Assembly: GCA_041640715.1 (NCBI GenBank)
Contig: JBEPZU010000002.1
Location: forward strand, 7,198 to 71,197
From: Thermoproteota archaeon
GTDB lineage: Archaea > Thermoproteota > Thermoprotei > Gearchaeales > Gearchaeaceae
DNA length: 64,000 nucleotides
Reading direction: 5' to 3'
Position 1 is the stretch's first letter. Each line of letters begins with the position of its first letter. Positions 3,412-49,119 of this stretch are shown here, piece by piece. Under the pieces are notes generated by a model that saw nothing but the letters and a program-made list of their open reading frames with translations, was not told where the DNA came from and did not search any database. Position numbers and translations under genes: made by a program.

Positions 3412-4509
3412 TTAGCTGAGCAGATTTATTGAGATCGCATAATATTTTACTAAGAAAACTAGAATTAAGTTGAAAACTGATAGAGGTAATAGCTTAGTCC
3501 AGCTTAAGCTTAATAACTGATCTATTCTATAGCGAGGAAGCGCTGCCCTTATTATTATATATAAGAACATGAAAAAGTATGTTTTGATCATTAACCAGAA
3601 GGGTCCGCTCATTGGTGATAAGATTCCTGGTAACTGGGGTCCTAACCAGCCCCCGAAGAATAGTATTGCTAGTAAAGTAGCGCTTACGAAGGCTCTTACG
3701 TACATTCCCATGATCAATAAAAGGAAAGGAGAAGCACTATACTCAGTGTTCCAACCTGCTATTATCTCTGATTCTGCATCAGGTATATCGAAAGGCGTCC
3801 TTTCAGCTTCAGCTATTGCAGTTATCAAAAAAAGTATGAAGGTAAGCGGTGCTAAAAATATCAGCCATATTTGCTTTTGTTTCTCGACGATTTCATATAA
3901 ATTCAAGGTTCCTGTAAGAACCACAACTGCGGCCACAGAAAGTAACAAGGGTATTTCGAAGCTTAGGAGCTGAGCTGCTGCCCTAAATCCTCCTATTATG
4001 CTATATTTATTGTTGCTTATCCATCCTGTGAGTAGTATTAATATTGGATTAAAGCTTAGGATTACGAAAATCAAGAGTAAACCTATGTCGAAATAACTCG
4101 ATACTATTGCATGTCTAAGAAGTCCGATCCAATTTATGAAAGGCTCCAACACTAATAGAGTATTTACCACCACGTAATCGTAGGGCATGATGATGATCAA
4201 TAAAAGTGAAATGGCTGTTACTAAAATAGGCATTGAAAGGAAAGCAAACTTATTAGCTTTTGCAGGAACTATTATTTCCTTATTTAAGATTTTGATGAAG
4301 TCTGCTATTAGTTGAAGTATTCCCCATTTGCCTACATAAGTAGGCCCCATCCTTTGCATCGTTCTAGCCCATATTTTCCTTTCAAGATAAATAAAAACTA
4401 TGACATTTACGAGTACTAGGACCAGAGCGAATAGCATCGCTAAGCCAGCTTTTATAATATCTAGCAAAAGCAGATTTGAAGTAATGAAGGGAAATATTCC
4501 TTCCATCAT
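3412..4509 (-). CDS. nuoH: Complex I-like subunit H
   Basis: ERKIWARTMQRMGP, GILQLIADFIKILNKE, AEAERTPFDIPDAESEIIAGWNTEYS, PRYRIDQLL. Confidence 0.95.
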   Translation of the reverse strand: MMEGIFPFITSNLLLLDIIKAGLAMLFALVLVLVNVIVFIYLERKIWARTMQRMGPTYVGKWGILQLIADFIKILNKEIIVPAKANKFAFLSMPILVTAISLLLIIIMPYDYVVVNTLLVLEPFINWIGLLRHAIVSSYFDIGLLLIFVILSFNPILILLTGWISNNKYSIIGGFRAAAQLLSFEIPLLLSVAAVVVLTGTLNLYEIVEKQKQIWLIFLAPLTFILFLITAIAEAERTPFDIPDAESEIIAGWNTEYSASPFLLLIMGMYVRAFVSATLLAILFFGGWLGPQLPGILSPMSGPFWLMIKTYFFMFLYIIIRAALPRYRIDQLLSLSWTKLLPLSVFNLILVFLVKYYAISINLLS

Positions 4510-7212: not shown

Positions 7213-8913
7213 GTGGATAAGATAAGAGCTGATGTAATAGTAATCGGAGGCGGAGCTGCTGGATTAAGAGCCGCTATCGAAGTTGCAAGCTTTAATCCTA
7301 AACTAGAGATAGCCTTGATTTCAAAGGTATATCCTATGAGGAGTCATACAGTCTCAGCCGAAGGAGGAACGGCCGCTGTTCTTAAAGAATATGATAGTTT
7401 TGATTTACATGCTTTTGATACAGTAAAAGGTAGCGATTTCTTAGCCGATCAAGATGCTGTTGAACTTTTTGTTAAACAAGCTCCTGTTGAGCTTTTGAAT
7501 TTAGAGAAATGGGGATGTCCTTGGAATAGAGATGAGAAAGGCAGAATGGAAGCGAGAGCATTCGGAGGAATGAGCGTGAAAAGGACTTTTTTTGCAGCAG
7601 ATAAAACAGGTTTTTACATACTTCATTCTCTTTTTCAAAGATCTTTGATTTATGATAACATCAAGAGGTATGATGAATGGTTTGTGACCTCATTGATAGT
7701 CGAACAAGGAAGGTTCAAGGGATTGACAGCCATAGAAATAAAGACAGGAAATTTGCACTATTTTGAAGGAAAGGCTGCAATAATATGTACAGGAGGAGTA
7801 GGTCAGCTCTATAAGAATACTACGAATGGAACTATAAACACAGGAGATGGCATGGCTTTCGCATATAGAGCAGGAGCACCGTTAAAGGATATGGAATTCA
7901 TTCAATTCCATCCTACAGGCCTTCCGGGAAAAGGTTTATTGATAACCGAAGCTGCTAGGGGCGAAGGGGGATACTTGCTCAATAATAAATATGAAAGATT
8001 CATGAAAAAATATGCTCCTGAAAAATTAGAACTTGCTTCACGTGATGTTGTATCTAGGGCTATAATTGGTGAGATCAAAGAAGGAAGGGGATTCACGGGT
8101 AAGTATGGAGAGTATGTTGGGTTAGATATAAGACATCTAGGTAAGGAATTCATAGAGAAAAGACTTCCTACAGTTAAAGAAATGGCTGAGAAGTATGTTG
8201 GTGTAGATCCGTTGCATGAGTTAATACCTGTTAGGCCAGTAATGCATTATATAATGGGAGGTATTCATACGAATAAATATGGAGAGACGCCCATAGCAGG
8301 ATTATATGCTGCGGGGGAAGCAGCATGTGTTAGTATTAACGGCGCAAACAGGCTCGGGTCAAATTCTTTATCAGAATGCTTAGTTTTCGGGGCTTTGGCT
8401 GGAAGACAGGCTGCAATTTTCGCTTCAAATCATGATTTCAGAGAAGTTTTAAGAGAAGAAGTTCTAAAAGAAGAGCATCGAATTTTCGAAGTTATTTTGA
8501 AGAAAGAAAACGGAATTCCTTATTCTGAAATTTTATATGAGTTAAAGAACACGATGGAAGAAAAAGTAGGAGTGATAAGAAACGGAAAGGAACTTCAAGA
8601 AGCTTATTCTACGATAATTAAATTAAAAGAGAAATTTAAAGGAGTCTCTGTTGTGGATAAAAGTAGAATATACAATACAGATTTTATACAAGTATTAGAG
8701 TTGGATTTTATGTTAGACTTGGCTGAAACTATTACTTATTCTGCATTGAAGAGAAAAGAATCTAGGGGTGCACATTATAGGACGGATTACCCAGAAAGAG
8801 ACGATAAAAATTGGCTTGTCCATCAGCTTGTATATAAGACTGAAGGTGAACCTACAATAGAACTTTTACCTGTAGTTATAACTAAATGGAAGCCAGCTGA
8901 AAGAAAATATTGA
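7213..8913 (+). CDS. frdA: Fumarate reductase/succinate dehydrogenase flavoprotein subunit
   Basis: GGGAAG, covalent-FAD motif RSHTVSAEGG, QFHPTG, EAARGEGG, RDVVSRA, HYIMGG, GANRLGSNSL, ESRGAH. Confidence 0.95.
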   Translation: MDKIRADVIVIGGGAAGLRAAIEVASFNPKLEIALISKVYPMRSHTVSAEGGTAAVLKEYDSFDLHAFDTVKGSDFLADQDAVELFVKQAPVELLNLEKWGCPWNRDEKGRMEARAFGGMSVKRTFFAADKTGFYILHSLFQRSLIYDNIKRYDEWFVTSLIVEQGRFKGLTAIEIKTGNLHYFEGKAAIICTGGVGQLYKNTTNGTINTGDGMAFAYRAGAPLKDMEFIQFHPTGLPGKGLLITEAARGEGGYLLNNKYERFMKKYAPEKLELASRDVVSRAIIGEIKEGRGFTGKYGEYVGLDIRHLGKEFIEKRLPTVKEMAEKYVGVDPLHELIPVRPVMHYIMGGIHTNKYGETPIAGLYAAGEAACVSINGANRLGSNSLSECLVFGALAGRQAAIFASNHDFREVLREEVLKEEHRIFEVILKKENGIPYSEILYELKNTMEEKVGVIRNGKELQEAYSTIIKLKEKFKGVSVVDKSRIYNTDFIQVLELDFMLDLAETITYSALKRKESRGAHYRTDYPERDDKNWLVHQLVYKTEGEPTIELLPVVITKWKPAERKY

Positions 8914-14240: not shown

Positions 14241-15533
14241 TTAAGGAAATACAAAAGCTCTTATAATACTATAAATATCCCTAAACAAATCTGCTGGCTT
14301 CCTTCTACTAAAAATTATTTTTCTCATTTCCTTTAATTTCAATTCTTTTGGGACACCATCTACAGTATGGATCAACTTTAAGATATCGTTGAGCATATCC
14401 GGATATACATCAAATAACGCTTTGTTATTTCTAAATAATATTGGTACTCTTCTGAATCTCCTAAGATCTCTTAATACAAAACAATTCCTCAACTTTTCTT
14501 CGTATCTTCTAAGCGCATTAACGCTGAAATCTTTAAGTTTATGGGCTTCAACGGCAGTTTCTCCTGCATGTATTCCAGATTCTACCGCGAAGTTTGTACC
14601 TTCCCAGCCTATTACGTTCACCAACATAGCTGCATCTCCTACAACCATAAAGCCATTAGTATAAAGCTTGGGTATTGAATGGTATCCTCCTTCAGGTATT
14701 AAATGCGCAGAATATTCTTTCAACGTACTGTCTTTTATGTAAGGAGCTATTGAAGGATGTCTTTTGAATTCCTCTAACATCTCATTCGGTCTTTTATTCT
14801 TTCTCACGATATCGCTGAGCAGAGCTCCTACACCTATTGACAACGTCTCCCTATTAGTGTATAAAAAGCCACCACCAGTCATACCTTTAACAGGACCGCC
14901 TATTATTGTTGCCGCAATCCCTTCATCAATTCCTAACTTGAAAGTTTCCTCTATCTTGACTCTACCTATTTCTATAACTTCTTTAACCCCTAGCACAACT
15001 TCATGGGGTTTCCACTCTTCATGTAGTCCAAGATCCCTGGCTAAGAGAGAATTAACGCCATCTGCAGCTATAACTATATTTCCGTAAACTTCTCCTCTAT
15101 CGGTTTCGACTCCTGTTACAAATCCTTCTTTGACGATGGGTTTTAAGGCTTGAGTTCTAGTTACGAGTATTGCTCCTGCTTCTTCAGCCTTTTTTGCATA
15201 CCAAGGATCGAATTTGGCTCTTAATGCAGTATACCCGCTTGGATTTTTAGCAAGCCTTTCATCTCTATAAACCAGCTTTATATGTCCTGTATCTGTAAGT
15301 ATCCAGTATTGGTATTCTACGACTTTCCTTTCAAGAGGAGCTTCCTTTACAAAATTGGGTATTAGTTTTTCAAATGCATGTCTTAATAATACACCTCCGA
15401 ACACGTTCTTCTCTCCCGGAATACCACCTCTTTCTATAACTAATGTATTCAAACCAGCGCGAGCAGTAGTTATAGCTGCTGAAATGCCTGCAGGTCCGGC
15501 TCCTACTATTATGACGTCGAATTTTTCAGGCAA
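14241..15533 (-). CDS. fixC: FixC / ETF:quinone oxidoreductase
   Basis: [54 protein letters not shown]. Confidence 0.92.
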
Positions 15534-17397
15534 CTTTAATCACCTTCTTCAAGTCCTCAGAAAGTAAAGGAACTATCTTAAAAAGATCTCCTACTATGCC
15601 GAAGTCTGCAACGTTGAAAATAGGTGCTGTAGGATCTATGTTAATAGCTACGATTATATCTGAGTTTTGAATACCTACTACATGCTGGATTGCACCTGAT
15701 ATACCTATTGCAATGTATAATCTAGGTCTTACAGTCAAACCTGTTTGGCCTATTTGTCTATCCTTAGATATCCATCCTGAATAAACAACCGCTCTTGTAG
15801 CTCCTATTTCAGCGTTTAGTATCTTTGCTAGTTCTTCAATCATAAAAATATTTTTAGGCGAACTTAACCCTTTACCAAAGGAAACTATTATGTTGGCTTC
15901 TTCGAGCTTTGTCTTCTCCTTAGGTATGAATTCTAAAAGTTCGGTATGTATTTTAGATTCATCTATGGGGAATTCTTCTTTAATCAATTCATAATCTTTA
16001 TTGAGCATCATAGGAGGTATTTTAAATACTTTAGGTCTAATGGTGACCATTTGAGGTTTATGCTTGGGGCAAACTATCGTAGACATTTCGTTACCACCGA
16101 AATCTGGCCTTGTAGCTAAAAGCATTCCTGTAGCTGGATCGATGTCCATTTGTGTTACATCTGCAGCTAAGCCAGTAGGTATTAGAGTTGCAACACATCC
16201 TGCCCAATCTCTACCGTTTTGTGTTCCAGGCATCAGCAAGATATCCGGTTTATATTTCAAACAAAGTTGCATGAGGGCAAATGAATAAGGTTCTGTTCTG
16301 TAATGTTCGTATACTTTAGAATCAACATAATATATTTTATCCGCACCATAACTTGCAGCTTCTTCTATTAAATTTTCTACTTTATAACCTACTATCACAG
16401 ATGCGCATTTTACTCCTAAAAGCCTTGACAATCTCCTTGCTTCACCAAGCAGTTCCCAAGAAACCGGGTCTGCTTTACCATACCTATGTTCTACAACACT
16501 CCATACTTCTCCAAAACTTTTAGTTTTATCAAACGCAATTGGTAAAGGCTTAGGTTCTTCATAGACCTCTGAGATCTTAGCACTGAAAGCATTGACCTTG
16601 ATGAGGTTATCTATTAACCATTTAACTGCTTCTTGTTCCTTTCCTCTTCCATCAAATATTTGGCCTTTTTTCCTAGGAGGAGGTGGAAATACCCTTTTAA
16701 CATAAGTAGGAGATCCTCTCAAACCTATTTTATCATCTTCAAGTTTTAAGTCATTTTTATTCCACTTTATGATCTTAGTTCTATAAGCTCTTATTATATC
16801 TGTTATTGTAGGAGTTCTAGGCGTATTTGCTTCTTCGATTATACTTAAGGCTGCAGGCAAACTAGCTTTGACCCTTTCATATCCATCATATACTTTTCTT
16901 CTTGCAATAATGTAACTTTTTTCTAGATTTATTTCTTCGATTTTGTAAGTATATGTAATTATAGGAATTCCAAAGCGAGCGGCTACACCAGGACCCACTT
17001 GACCGGTTTCGCCATCTATAGCTTGTCTTCCAAAGAGTAGCAGAGTGAAGGGGCCATGAATTTCAACTGCCTTTTTTATTGCCATCCAAAGAGTATAGGA
17101 AGTAGCTAGTGTATCTGAACCTGCTAAAGCTCTATCTGAGATATGGTAGGCATTATCTACACCCATTGCTAAAACTTCTCTTAAAGAGCTTTCTGCTTGA
17201 AGAGGTCCCATTGTTAGAGCTGTGATGGTTCCTCCAAATTTTTCCTTAACCTTCAATGCTTCTTCAGTTGCATGGAGATCTGGTGGGTTAGTTATAGCAG
17301 GTACGCCTTCTCGAATTAAGTTATTTGTCTTAGGATCAATTCTCATATCTGCAGAATCAGGAACTTGTTTAATACAAACTATGATGTGCATTCTCAA
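15526..17397 (-). CDS. fixAB: Fused electron transfer flavoprotein beta-alpha (FixA-FixB fusion)
   Basis: N-half [25 protein letters not shown] (EtfB); C-half [42 protein letters not shown] (EtfA); one 623-aa ORF. Confidence 0.92.
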
Positions 17398-43397: not shown

Positions 43398-44006
43398 ATG
43401 AAAAAGAAATTATTGATCCCGATTTCTGCTGCTGTTATAATAGTCGTCGTCATCGCCTATATTGCTGTTGGCGCTTCTGAGAAGCCTAGGGGGTATGTAC
43501 TTCCTAATCCAATCAATTCTCCAAACTTTGTTCTTCAAAATGCCGTAACAGGAGAGACTGTAGAGTTAAGTAAGCTTTACGGCAAGGTGGTGGCAATTTC
43601 CTTCGTTTATGTTCATTGCCCTGATGTTTGTCCTATAATATTTGCGAGATTCAAGCAAGCAGCTAATGAATTAGATAAAGCAGGATTTTCTGGTCAGTAT
43701 GTGATGCTCCTTATCTCAGTAGATCCTGAGAGAGATATTAAAGACGGCAAAGCTTATATGGAAAAATTAAATGCACCTAGTGAAGTTATTTTCTTAGTAG
43801 GGAATAGAACAGTTCTACAACAAGTTTGGAATAAGTATGGTGTTTATGTAGAGAAAGTAGGGACTGGAGAAAACTATACCGTAACTCATTCAGTTATAAT
43901 AATATTGTTAGACAAACAATTGAGACAAAGAATATACTTCGGTAACATATTAAGTTGGTCTCCCGAAGATTTATATCATGATATGGTATTACTGCTTAAG
44001 GAATGA
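43398..44006 (+). CDS. SCO1/SenC copper chaperone
   Basis: N-terminal anchor, FVYVHCPDVCP (CxxxC), ISVDPERD, conserved His in VTHS. Confidence 0.92.
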   Translation: MKKKLLIPISAAVIIVVVIAYIAVGASEKPRGYVLPNPINSPNFVLQNAVTGETVELSKLYGKVVAISFVYVHCPDVCPIIFARFKQAANELDKAGFSGQYVMLLISVDPERDIKDGKAYMEKLNAPSEVIFLVGNRTVLQQVWNKYGVYVEKVGTGENYTVTHSVIIILLDKQLRQRIYFGNILSWSPEDLYHDMVLLLKE

Positions 44007-44620
44007 AGTTTATCGACCTTATTAAGACTAAACGATTTCTGGTTTATTCCTCTTTAGTAATTTTATCTTACATCGTAATCCTCATACTAATTCAATGGAT
44101 CATAGCAGGAGCTCCTCCTAACGGCTTTGGCCTTTTGAATAAGCCTGAATCTTCTAAATATGCTAATTTCGAAGATTTCGTGATACTTTGGGTAAAGTAT
44201 GAGCAAGTTATTGAGGGAGCGAATTTTGAATGGTACGGAATATTAACTCTAACCACTTTTTCTCTTTTGATATTACTATCTTTCATATCAGCGATCAATT
44301 TATCTTTAACAAAAGAATTAGGTAAGGGCAAGAAAGGAGCTGCCTGTGGTACTTTAACGAGTACTGCAGGCTTAGCATTAATAACAACTTCCGTCAGTGC
44401 CTGTCCATCTTGTGGAACAGCAGCTATATTATCGGTATCTCAAGCACTTATCTTCGTAGCTACGGGTAGCACCTTAGGCATATCTGCTCTATTCAAGTTC
44501 CTTACCGATTTAGTAATAATTATAGGAATAGCGATAAATCTCTTGTTATTCTTCATTTTATATAAGAAAATCAATAAAAATTCATGGCATATGAGGTTAG
44601 TTATGATCAAACGAAGGTAG
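44003..44620 (+). CDS. Membrane protein with Cys motifs (AACG...SACPSCG)
   Basis: About 4 TM; CxxC at the end of a hydrophobic segment; ATGA overlap with SCO. Confidence 0.7.
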   Translation: MKFIDLIKTKRFLVYSSLVILSYIVILILIQWIIAGAPPNGFGLLNKPESSKYANFEDFVILWVKYEQVIEGANFEWYGILTLTTFSLLILLSFISAINLSLTKELGKGKKGAACGTLTSTAGLALITTSVSACPSCGTAAILSVSQALIFVATGSTLGISALFKFLTDLVIIIGIAINLLLFFILYKKINKNSWHMRLVMIKRR

Positions 44621-47125: not shown

Positions 47126-47569
47126 TCAGACCGGCTGTACGATTTTTATCGCCTTTGTGGGACAGGCTATTTCACAAGCTAAGCAGAAAATGCAATTCTG
47201 TTCTCTAATAGGGAATGCTTTATCCGTTCTATATTTTTCCCATAATTCTCTATCTTCGGGCTTATTCGGGTCAATAACTCTATCGTTTCCACTACCGGCT
47301 TTACCAGGATTCAAAAACCATTCGAACACATTAACAGGGCAAACGTCCATACATACTCCATCTGCTATGCATGCTTCAAAATCTACCAATACAATACTAC
47401 CGTATATTCCAAGGGAAGTAGGATAAGGTTTTTCATCAGCATCTAATCTTTTCATCCCTCCGGCTCTTATTTTTATTCCTAAGTATTCTCCTGTTATAGG
47501 GTATTCATCCGGTTTGTTAATCACTTCGGGATCGATGGGCTTTGGCTTATAATCTACAGGTCTGACCAT
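47126..47569 (-). CDS. 7Fe ([3Fe-4S][4Fe-4S]) ferredoxin of the Thermoplasma/Sulfolobus zinc-ferredoxin family, Zn ligands absent
   Basis: CIADGVCMDVCP and CIFCLACEIACP; the N-terminal extension KPKPID..YPITG..RA.GM.RLDAD.KPYPT.LGI recalls T. acidophilum ferredoxin. Confidence 0.9.
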   Translation of the reverse strand: MVRPVDYKPKPIDPEVINKPDEYPITGEYLGIKIRAGGMKRLDADEKPYPTSLGIYGSIVLVDFEACIADGVCMDVCPVNVFEWFLNPGKAGSGNDRVIDPNKPEDRELWEKYRTDKAFPIREQNCIFCLACEIACPTKAIKIVQPV

Positions 47570-47624: not shown

Positions 47625-47811
47625 GGAAAATGCAAGATGCGTGTTCGTGAATTATTTACATTTAATTTGAATACCTGTGTTATGTTGTTTATTTATCTTC
47701 ATAATTATTAATATTAAATTTTATGTCAATATAATTAAGCATATTTAAATGCGATAATGTATATATATAAATACAATAAGTATAAATATACGAAATTAAA
47801 TTTTTATCACG

Positions 47812-49119
47812 ATGTCGAGAGGCTCCGAATCTGGGAGGAGCTTCCGAATATATCTACCGCTTTTCATAGTAGGGCTTCTCCTTACAGCTCTAGGAGGTAC
47901 TATAGGACTGATAGGTGTATGGGGGTTTGTAGTTAACAAAGCAACGGTTCCTTCTCTCATTAGAACTACTCATGCACATATAAACTGGTGGGGTATTATT
48001 GCCATGTTAGCGGCTATAGGTTTACCAGTATTGACTAAACCAACTTTTCTCGGAAGTCCTGAACGTACAAGGCGCATTATAGCTATAGCATTCTTCGTTG
48101 CTACATTCATATGGTTAGGCGGTATGGTTGCTATATATACTACAGGTTCTATCTATCTTGGAGCTTTTGCAAGCGTTGCTGAGATAATTTTCGTAATTCT
48201 AATACTTCTGATCGTATATTGGATTATAAAGGAAAAAAGTGCTTGGTTCGTGGCATGGCCACGCTTCTATGTATTAGGGATTCTAGCTATCTTGTTCATC
48301 AGTGTTATCTTAGGTCTAGCAATCATCGCACAATATAAGGTTGAGAATCCACACTTCTATCTCTCAACATCCCAATTAAGGGCGCTTCCAACAACACACG
48401 TTCATCTAGCTATTTTACCAATGGCTTCGCTTGTTTATCTTGCTGTTGCCAGCATGATAGCGAATGTGCCGCAAAATACGGTTAAGAAGATTTCAATGAT
48501 ATTCCTTGTTGGATTAGCTCTATATCCCTTCTTATTCTTAGCATGGCATTTAGGCGGTAGCAGATACATACCAATGATCTCTGAGGCGATCTTCTACATA
48601 GGTGCTCTGAGCGTGTTTATAATGGTAATTCTTTCATTGAAGAAAGAAGGACCTGTTGATTCTCATATCAAACCATTTTATGTTTACTTACTCGCACTAA
48701 ACTTATTCCTAGTAGGAGCTGGTGCATATTTAGCGATATCCAAAGTAGCGCCTTTCTCAGCTTATACTTATGGCTGGTATCCAAAAGACACGGACTGGGT
48801 ATATTGGAGAAACATAGAGAACCTTCATTTTAGCCCAGGAAGTTGGACTTTTTCAAAGATGGCTGCATTATTAGGAATAATCCTCCTACCTTTATCTTTA
48901 CCTACTAAGCTCTACTTAGCAACTCTAGCAGCTCTAGCACCAACCTTCAATGCTATAGGAAGAATTACTACTGCAATAGGCTTTCCGCCCGGCGGTCCTG
49001 GTGCACTTATACTTGCTGGTCAGCCGATTTTTGCCTTATTCCAGCTAAGCGCAATTATAGCAGCTTTCTATGTCTGGTGGAAGTACAAAAAAAGCATTTA
49101 CCCAGTAGAATCAAGCTAA
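47812..49119 (+). CDS. 12-TM membrane protein with a three-fold His repeat, heme-copper oxidase subunit I-like fold
   Basis: H54-x-H56 (RTTHAHINWWG), H196-x-H198 (PTTHVHL), N337-x-H339 (ENLHF), spaced 142 and 141 aa; no HH CuB pair. Confidence 0.55.
   Translation: MSRGSESGRSFRIYLPLFIVGLLLTALGGTIGLIGVWGFVVNKATVPSLIRTTHAHINWWGIIAMLAAIGLPVLTKPTFLGSPERTRRIIAIAFFVATFIWLGGMVAIYTTGSIYLGAFASVAEIIFVILILLIVYWIIKEKSAWFVAWPRFYVLGILAILFISVILGLAIIAQYKVENPHFYLSTSQLRALPTTHVHLAILPMASLVYLAVASMIANVPQNTVKKISMIFLVGLALYPFLFLAWHLGGSRYIPMISEAIFYIGALSVFIMVILSLKKEGPVDSHIKPFYVYLLALNLFLVGAGAYLAISKVAPFSAYTYGWYPKDTDWVYWRNIENLHFSPGSWTFSKMAALLGIILLPLSLPTKLYLATLAALAPTFNAIGRITTAIGFPPGGPGALILAGQPIFALFQLSAIIAAFYVWWKYKKSIYPVESS

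Follow-up and report, generated by a model that had tools for sequence, protein, structure and literature searches.

The DNA analysed here, a 64,000-nucleotide stretch of contig JBEPZU010000002.1 (assembly GCA_041640715.1, positions 7,198 to 71,197; hereafter the window), comes from an archaeon of the Thermoproteota. At positions 47812..49119 of its forward (+) strand, stop codon included, it carries an unannotated gene for a membrane protein predicted to have 12 transmembrane helices. Here we report that this protein belongs to a conserved family whose predicted fold resembles that of subunit I of the heme-copper oxidases (HCOs), and whose invariant histidines are laid out in a different way.

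A conserved and unannotated gene family

The open reading frame (ORF) at 47812..49119(+) begins with ATG and encodes a product of 435 amino acids without a single cysteine. A candidate archaeal TATA box, recognized by eye (TATAAATA, 47781..47788, +), lies about 27 nt 5' of the ATG, a position that suggests a leaderless archaeal mRNA. Comparison with a 94.6%-identical relative yields a dN/dS of 0.35, a value by which the gene in the window is under purifying selection. The gene looks real because the ORF is intact, a TATA-like element stands about 27 nt upstream, and dN/dS is low. The window is AT-rich (GC about 35%) and encodes a reverse gyrase of 1241 aa. In a search of sequencing runs its DNA was present in one hot-spring metagenome DNA run only, and no RNA runs contained the locus.

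The initial annotation had described the protein as an orphan, a view that did not survive wider searches. A word-indexed search of 5.8 billion proteins returned four relatives (94, 57, 55 and 54% identity), exhaustive profile searching with HMMER gave 12 matches among 1.84 billion representatives, with iterated searches leading to 11 clusters, and a pattern scan of 185,579 species genomes, based on a 12-sequence family alignment, located 31 loci. The family comprises at least 30 distinct full-length relatives from species-level genomes. It is mainly archaeal, chiefly from hot-spring archaea: its hosts include Sulfolobales, Acidilobaceae, Desulfurococcaceae AG1, Pyrobaculum, Archaeoglobaceae, Caldarchaeales/Calditenuaceae, Nitrosocaldus and other thermophilic Nitrososphaeria, and Geothermarchaeota, together with a few bacteria (Chlamydiales/Waddliaceae, Planctomycetota, a deltaproteobacterium and an actinomycete). 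Strict anaerobes and aerobes are both represented.

Family members had no match in Pfam-A or NCBIfam even at E<=10 (for Pfam, the window protein and 20 others), a family profile search of PDB sequences yielded no match, HCOs included, the window protein by itself brought no meaningful match there either, and the literature searched held nothing relevant on an HCO-like or NnrS-related family of this kind. The family is previously undescribed in Pfam, NCBIfam, PDB or the searched literature.

Two observations concern gene copies within the family. In three Caldarchaeales/Nitrososphaerota contigs the family gene is followed, about 9 kb downstream, by a second, paralogous copy that the end of the locus cuts off (L008, 16971-17447; L025, 16821-17411; L033, 16963-17442). 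In a Caldarchaeum metagenome-assembled genome (MAG) the family gene is split into two adjacent ORFs of 449 and 94 aa (L026, 5187-6827).

Predicted fold

AlphaFold2 modelling with 18 family sequences gave a predicted local distance difference test score (pLDDT) of 77.5 and a predicted template-modelling score of 0.83; with five close sequences only, pLDDT was 46, too poor for use alone. The better model contains 12 helices (residues 15-41, 48-73, 83-111, 114-140, 151-178, 191-215, 221-246, 253-274, 287-312, 327-336/341-358, 363-388 and 404-424), and its core is predicted to form the pseudo-three-fold set of four-helix arcs that characterizes HCO subunit I.

Foldseek comparison of this model with the PDB returned HCO subunit I as 16 of the 17 top matches, all at probability 1.00 and with template-modelling (TM) scores of 0.5-0.59, the level of shared topology. 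These included ba3 oxidase of Thermus thermophilus (E 3e-4, query TM-score 0.54), cbb3 oxidase (query TM-score up to 0.59), the nitric oxide reductase (NOR) of Roseobacter (cNOR) and bovine aa3 oxidase. Other 12-helix proteins such as the MATE and MurJ transporters, and G-protein-coupled receptors, scored only 0.1-0.2 (transporters 0.11-0.2, with probability below 0.3). The near-exclusive match to HCO subunit I agrees with the fold that the initial annotation had proposed from the letters of the sequence. The low-confidence first model produced the same list of matches, which speaks for consistency rather than independence.

Histidine motifs and membrane topology

The window protein has eight histidines (54, 56, 181, 196, 198, 246, 285 and 339), none of them adjacent. 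Five fall into three motifs, T-T-H54-A-H56, T-T-H196-V-H198 and E336-N337-L-H339, separated by 142 and 141 residues. The model places these motifs in helix 2 (48-73), helix 6 (191-215) and the kinked helix 10 (327-336 and 341-358), so that each occupies the second helix of its own four-helix unit. Sequence and model thus agree with the initial annotation on the motifs, their spacing and their helices, and sequence inspection likewise confirms its statement that the HH pair and the HPEVY and HLWVEG motifs are absent from the window protein.

All five motif histidines, which the initial annotation had picked out, are invariant in the family. The H54-A55-H56 codons (47971..47979, +) specify a segment of helix II located 6-8 residues from its outer end and followed by the invariant W59 and W60; this H-A-H is identical in 30 of 30 sequences. 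H196-V197-H198 (48397..48405, +), 5-7 residues from the outer end of helix VI, is equally invariant in all 30 and is present in every alignment made. At the kink of helix X the codons for R333 to W345 (48808..48846, +) encode R-x-x-E336-N337-x-H339-x-S341-P-G-S344-W345, in which R333, E336, N337, H339, S341, P342 and S344 are invariant throughout (30/30). Because all five histidines, E336 and N337 are invariant in 30 homologues from distant lineages, the motif pattern exceeds what chance would produce. In the full-length set (n=30) the invariant residues are G28, G32, W37, P47, H54, A55, H56, W59, W60, P72, W101, G168, A191, H196, H198, Y262, G321, P324, R333, E336, N337, H339, S341, P342 and S344, while Y109, E124, K176, W345, P377, N380, G383, R384 and P405 are kept in at least 29. 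The outer loop between helices IX and X, rich in proline and aromatic residues, is also strongly conserved. The histidine on helix VII, H246, is not shared by the family as a whole.

A further histidine stands at the outer start of helix XII, where the family consensus reads H-P. Position 404 is His in 28 of 29 sequences and Gln in the window protein alone (Q404-P405, 49021..49026, +; CAG at 49021-49023 versus CAT in the 94.6%-identical relative). Q404 may represent a lineage-specific loss of one candidate ligand.

The count of basic residues (9 versus 4) favours an N-in topology by the positive-inside rule. With this topology assumed, the conserved polar residues lie 0-18 residues from the outer helix ends, all except S344 and W345 within 14, and every conserved histidine lies at 0-12; the conserved residues are accordingly predicted by the model to sit in the outer half of the membrane. 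The family alignment contains no conserved protonatable residue in the inner half.

Internal repeat

The initial annotation had read the histidine spacing as an exact three-fold periodicity. The helices of the model divide the protein into three units of four helices each: unit 1 (residues 12-146, helices I-IV; 47845..48249, +), unit 2 (residues 147-284, helices V-VIII; 48250..48663, +) and unit 3 (residues 285-430, helices IX-XII; 48664..49101, +). Homology between units 1 and 2 is visible in the single sequence, with a Smith-Waterman z of 4.1 (1 of 300 shuffles was as good) and the histidine motifs superposed. Profile-profile comparison with hhalign gave E 1.9e-4 with 18 sequences and 1.2e-3 with 30; the score of 26.3 compares with 12.1 +/- 2.4 (maximum 18.9) for a column-shuffled null, a z of about 6, and with 13-15 for reversed-unit controls. 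On these sequence comparisons units 1 and 2 are homologous by duplication, with their histidine motifs in register.

Unit 3 has the same four-helix layout, but sequence comparison does not demonstrate its homology to units 1 and 2. The hhalign comparison of units 2 and 3 gave E 0.089 and a score of 16.0, inside the range of the null (maximum 16.1), and that of units 1 and 3 was not significant. In the best, non-significant alignment of units 2 and 3, H339 pairs with the first histidine, H196, and S341 with H198, so the register of N-x-H on H-x-H is not established. Of the proposed periodicity, the motif positions and the homology of units 1 and 2 therefore stand, and the homology of unit 3 does not: the sequence repeat is two-fold, and the third motif, E-N-x-H, is equivalent to the others in position.

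Sequence relation to heme-copper oxidases

Comparison at the sequence level drew on a set of 16 HCO subunits I: E. coli CyoB, seven plasmid-encoded A-type sequences, Sinorhizobium (S.) meliloti NorB (identified by its motifs H194-LWVEG, H245/H246 and H334-G-H336) and two further cNORs, two quinol-dependent NORs (qNORs) and three cbb3-type sequences. The known members find one another readily by hhalign (NOR versus A-type, E 1.5e-7; cbb3 versus A-type, 2.4e-17; NOR versus cbb3, 8e-21). The family profile aligned with the combined 16-sequence HCO profile at E 0.0032 over 282 columns, with a score of 32.2 as against 14.7-17.2 for reversed profiles and 18.9 +/- 2.1 (maximum 24.8) for 40 helix-block permutations of the family alignment.

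The helix bundle of HCOs is centred on helices II, VI and X, which bear the ligands, and the H-x-H of helix X binds two hemes in adjacent pores. The combined-profile alignment puts family helix II on HCO helix VI and family helix VI on HCO helix X, such that H196-x-H198 falls exactly on the helix-X H-x-H and Y109 stands opposite the helix-VII HH pair. To us this match hints, modestly and independently, at remote homology; it fits the internal symmetry of the fold and proves no particular register.

The canonical ligand pattern of HCOs comprises six histidines (one each on helices II and VI, HH on VII and H-x-H on X). The family departs from it, with histidines at 54/56 on helix II, 196/198 on VI, 339 on X and 404 on XII (Q in the window protein). 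HLWVEG on helix VI and the helix-VII HH, which supply the FeB ligands of NorB and qNOR, are absent from both the window protein and the family consensus. There is no canonical CuB/FeB site because the helix-VII HH pair is missing.

Genomic context

The initial annotation had also drawn attention to a divergent ferredoxin and a nearby SCO gene, and both are placed as it described: a zinc-ferredoxin gene (47126-47569, -) is divergent from the family gene across a 242-bp gap, and SCO1 (43398-44006) lies 3.8 kb away, with macro-domain, ADH and DUF1152 genes between. In the window and in the 94% relative the family gene stands between DUF1152 and a saccharopine-dehydrogenase-like gene, divergent to the zinc ferredoxin. 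The linkage does not extend beyond the window's own lineage, and for that reason this neighbourhood is of little informative value for function. A functional link to ferredoxin and SCO was rejected, as the arrangement occurs in the window and the 94% relative only; the ferredoxin itself is of the Sulfolobales zinc type, which we take to be a housekeeping carrier.

The SCO1/SenC gene (43398-44006) overlaps by 4 bp a 205-aa membrane ORF (44003-44620) that has C-P-S-C in a hydrophobic stretch and no Pfam match. The two may be a copper-handling pair.

In other lineages the tight same-strand neighbours of the family gene are repeatedly electron-transfer proteins. In two Thermoproteota lineages (L001 and L004) a molybdenum-bis(pyranopterin guanine dinucleotide) enzyme of the NapA/Fdh clade with a twin-arginine translocation (TAT) signal, followed by a four-cluster iron-sulfur subunit and an NrfD anchor, starts 6 bp after the family gene or overlaps it; its active site has Cys-Gln and not the Cys-His of Fdh. 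A QFR/SDH (fumarate-reductase) cytochrome b, flavoprotein and iron-sulfur subunits adjoin the gene in a deltaproteobacterium (L035), a cytochrome b lies 42 bp upstream in Pyrobaculum (L041), a 4Fe-4S protein adjoins it in a planctomycete (L040), and a flavin reductase does so in two lineages (L037, L039). At four Caldarchaeales loci (L005, L011, L020, L023) the neighbour is aldehyde:ferredoxin oxidoreductase (AFOR). The remaining loci have unrelated neighbours, such as peptidases, a helicase, TerC and a transporter of the sulfate-symporter family.

HCO subunits I, II and III were sought in the flanks of 35 loci by BLASTP (E<=0.01) with CyoA, QoxA, CoxB and CyoC fragments and eight subunit-I queries; within the limited sensitivity of this search none was found. 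No flank encodes a multi-heme cytochrome c, and a single CxxCH motif occurs in one neighbouring ORF only.

Some of these neighbours merit description in their own right. The enzymes at L001 (2567-6856) and L004 (1883-3514) are archaeal TAT-exported molybdoenzymes of the NapA/Fdh clade. Cys-Gln occupies the Mo-ligand position, DsrO/TtrB-like iron-sulfur and NrfD subunits accompany the enzymes, and there was no NCBIfam equivalog match. AFOR is split into two or three ORFs in several MAGs (L005-L007, 9531-11354; L011, 9165-9712) and is intact, at 610 aa, in L020 (1535-3367); the splits could reflect frameshifts, pseudogenisation or assembly error.

A candidate redox module and its alternatives

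The reading that we favour, and to which we give an even chance, is that of a new 12-helix family that would share the pseudo-three-fold fold of HCO subunit I, have a different ligand layout, probably bind heme or metal at the outer face, and act in electron transfer. It may be a new branch of the HCO enzyme superfamily. Helices II and VI would each provide ligands through an H-x-H pair, helix X through E-N-x-H and, in most members, helix XII through one further His. If the centre of the bundle consists of helices II, VI and X, as it does in HCOs, the two histidines of each pair, about 200 degrees apart on the helix, could ligate cofactors in adjacent pores. The arrangement that we consider most likely is two bis-His hemes b plus one open site near the outer face, holding a mono-His heme or a non-heme metal and lined by E336, N337, R333 and, in most members, H404. 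Such a protein could work as a stand-alone membrane redox module, taking electrons from quinol or a neighbouring respiratory complex and reducing a small substrate at the outer-face site. The lack of conserved polar residues in the inner half argues against a cytoplasmic proton channel and favours NOR-like non-pumping chemistry or simple electron transfer; a conserved channel of this kind would be missing here as it is in NOR. All these cofactor assignments are inferences from comparative analysis.

Several results weigh against this reading. TM-scores of 0.5-0.59 at a root-mean-square deviation of 8-9 Å denote topological, not close, similarity, and the training of AlphaFold2 included HCO structures while the family alignment is shallow; a modelling artefact behind the HCO-like fold is a rival explanation. 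By hhalign the family did not match single-type profiles significantly (A-type E 0.41, NOR E 0.064, cbb3 E 0.34), nor was there a Pfam match to COX1 (PF00115) even at E<=10 in 21 members. The sole significant HCO alignment has a four-helix offset, and comparison of the individual units with HCO by hhalign was not significant and gave an ambiguous mapping; a circular-permutation mapping of the units was dropped on those grounds. Neighbour clustering of the 35 loci, a survey that often met respiratory or redox genes, revealed a variable rather than a conserved neighbourhood with no universal partner, and the flanks contain no subunit-II-like or cytochrome c partner. The window protein, finally, has Q in place of the otherwise conserved H404 and is an atypical copy.

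We do not file the family as HCO, because three of four features by which membership can be judged (a profile match, the six-His pattern and a partner subunit) are lacking and only the predicted fold is present; it is, in looks at least, a divergent relative. The initial annotation had envisaged a distant, more symmetric protein of HCO/NOR fold without CuB ligands. The predicted fold, the invariant histidines and the absence of HH bear this out in part, and the symmetry is detectable in sequence in two of the three units only.

A different possibility, which we consider unlikely, is an integral-membrane non-heme metalloenzyme, a hydrolase or oxygenase in which HxH, HxH and ExxH bind mono- or di-nuclear Zn, Fe or Cu at the outer face; the HCO-like packing would then be real but divergent in cofactor, or a product of modelling bias. 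Invariant histidines accompanied by E336, N337, R333, S341 and S344 near the outer surface are typical of catalytic metal sites, the conserved Pro/aromatic-rich IX-X loop resembles a substrate-binding lid, and the presence of the family in strict anaerobes as well as aerobes is consistent with such a role. However, no membrane hydrolase or desaturase-type fold appeared among the Foldseek matches, H-x-H on an alpha-helix faces two sides and suits two separate sites better than a single metal, and the informative operonic partners are electron-transfer complexes.

Quite improbable, in our view, is the transport of a metal cation, ammonium, protons or an oxyanion such as tungstate or molybdate by a channel or secondary transporter in which His and Glu line the permeation path. 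Twelve helices and an internal repeat would suit a transporter, and Mo/W-pterin enzymes (the complex iron-sulfur molybdoenzyme, CISM, and AFOR) or a Wtp/Mod-type ABC transporter adjoin the gene in several lineages. Against this, Foldseek found no transporter fold (MFS, MATE/MOP, APC): such proteins scored below 0.2 and HCOs 0.5-0.59. There was no Pfam transporter match, the conserved polar residues are limited to one leaflet and do not span the membrane, and other contexts (QFR, cytochrome b, flavin reductase) have no Mo/W link. A molybdate/tungstate transporter was rejected as the principal explanation on the evidence of these and of unrelated neighbours in other lineages, and of the fold.

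Most doubtful of all is a true but very divergent NO or O2 reductase of the HCO superfamily, with a heme-heme/metal active site and NOR or oxidase chemistry: the best structural matches do include cNOR and the B and C families, the gene is co-operonic in two lineages with the NapA-like enzyme whose Cys-Gln is not of the Fdh type, and an inner-half proton path is missing as in NOR, but the six-His pattern is broken (no helix-VII HH, a single His on helix X), HLWVEG, HPEVY, a COX1 match and a NorC- or subunit-II-like partner are all absent, and members of the family are present in lineages not expected to denitrify (Archaeoglobaceae, Acidilobaceae and Chlamydiales).

Comparison with known systems and significance

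With HCO subunit I (ba3 of Thermus thermophilus, 4g7s_A and 1xme_A; cbb3 CcoN, 3mk7; bovine and bacterial aa3) the family shares the predicted N-in, 12-helix core of three four-helix arcs, the location of candidate His ligands (helices II, VI and X, within the outer third of the membrane), a central helix with H-x-H, which HCO helix X also has, and conserved Arg residues near the outer face (R333 and R384 in the family). It differs in having neither the helix-VII HH pair nor the cross-linked-Tyr motif, in carrying H-x-H twice (II and VI) with a single His in E-N-x-H on X and usually an extra His on XII, and in lacking a COX1 Pfam match and nearby subunit II/III genes. Unlike in HCOs, an internal duplication is detectable in its sequence, and the best profile alignment has its register offset by four helices.

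NORs (cNOR NorB, 3o0r_B and 4xyd_A; qNOR) offer the same fold match, a conserved Glu beside the His ligand region, no conserved proton pathway on the cytoplasmic side and, in qNOR, a stand-alone organization without a cupredoxin subunit. By contrast, the family has no HLWVEG, no FeB ligand set (His on VI, HH on VII, plus Glu), no NorC and no qNOR N-terminal domain, and the NOR-only profile gave E 0.064. NnrS (PF05940), a heme- and copper-containing 12-helix protein of denitrifiers tied to NO stress, which the initial annotation had listed for comparison, is likewise a His-rich polytopic membrane protein; neither the window protein nor 20 other members had a Pfam match to it at E<=10, and no NnrS structure was among the Foldseek PDB matches.

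Nearly all aerobic respiration, and a large part of NO reduction in biology, is carried out by HCOs. Their origin has long been debated, as has the order in which oxygen and NO reduction arose. We know of no outgroup to the HCO fold. This family could serve as one, given its same predicted architecture, simpler repeat-like ligands, absence of CuB and occurrence in deep-branching thermophilic archaea. We raise as a tentative and rather unlikely proposal that the family is sister to the heme-copper oxidoreductases and survives with the four-helix repeat still visible in its sequence. If so, descent of the subunit-I fold from a heme-binding four-helix module by triplication, a hypothesis that the family would make testable, would for the first time have direct support from sequence. 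The protein could then hold up to three cofactors, one per pore, as against two hemes and CuB in modern enzymes, and the symmetry broken in one pore (mono-His with E336/N337) would mark a primitive catalytic site. The family also flags an unannotated, conserved membrane redox candidate that, in uncultured hot-spring archaea, adjoins genes for nitrate-reductase-like and fumarate-reductase enzymes, cytochrome b and aldehyde oxidoreductase.

Other redox genes in the window

The segment 52507-54371 encodes a MerA-like pyridine-nucleotide disulfide oxidoreductase ending in ...SCCVE and, divergent to it, an HxlR-type regulator. Three other lineages (L018, L037, L039) encode homologues of the reductase no more than 6 kb from the family gene. 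Within 14241-17397 a 623-aa ORF with two electron-transfer flavoprotein (ETF) domain matches and an ETF alpha FAD-binding domain looks like a fused ETF beta/alpha and adjoins a FixC-like FAD oxidoreductase. The window also encodes a succinate dehydrogenase flavoprotein (7213-8913) and NADH dehydrogenase subunit H (3412-4509).

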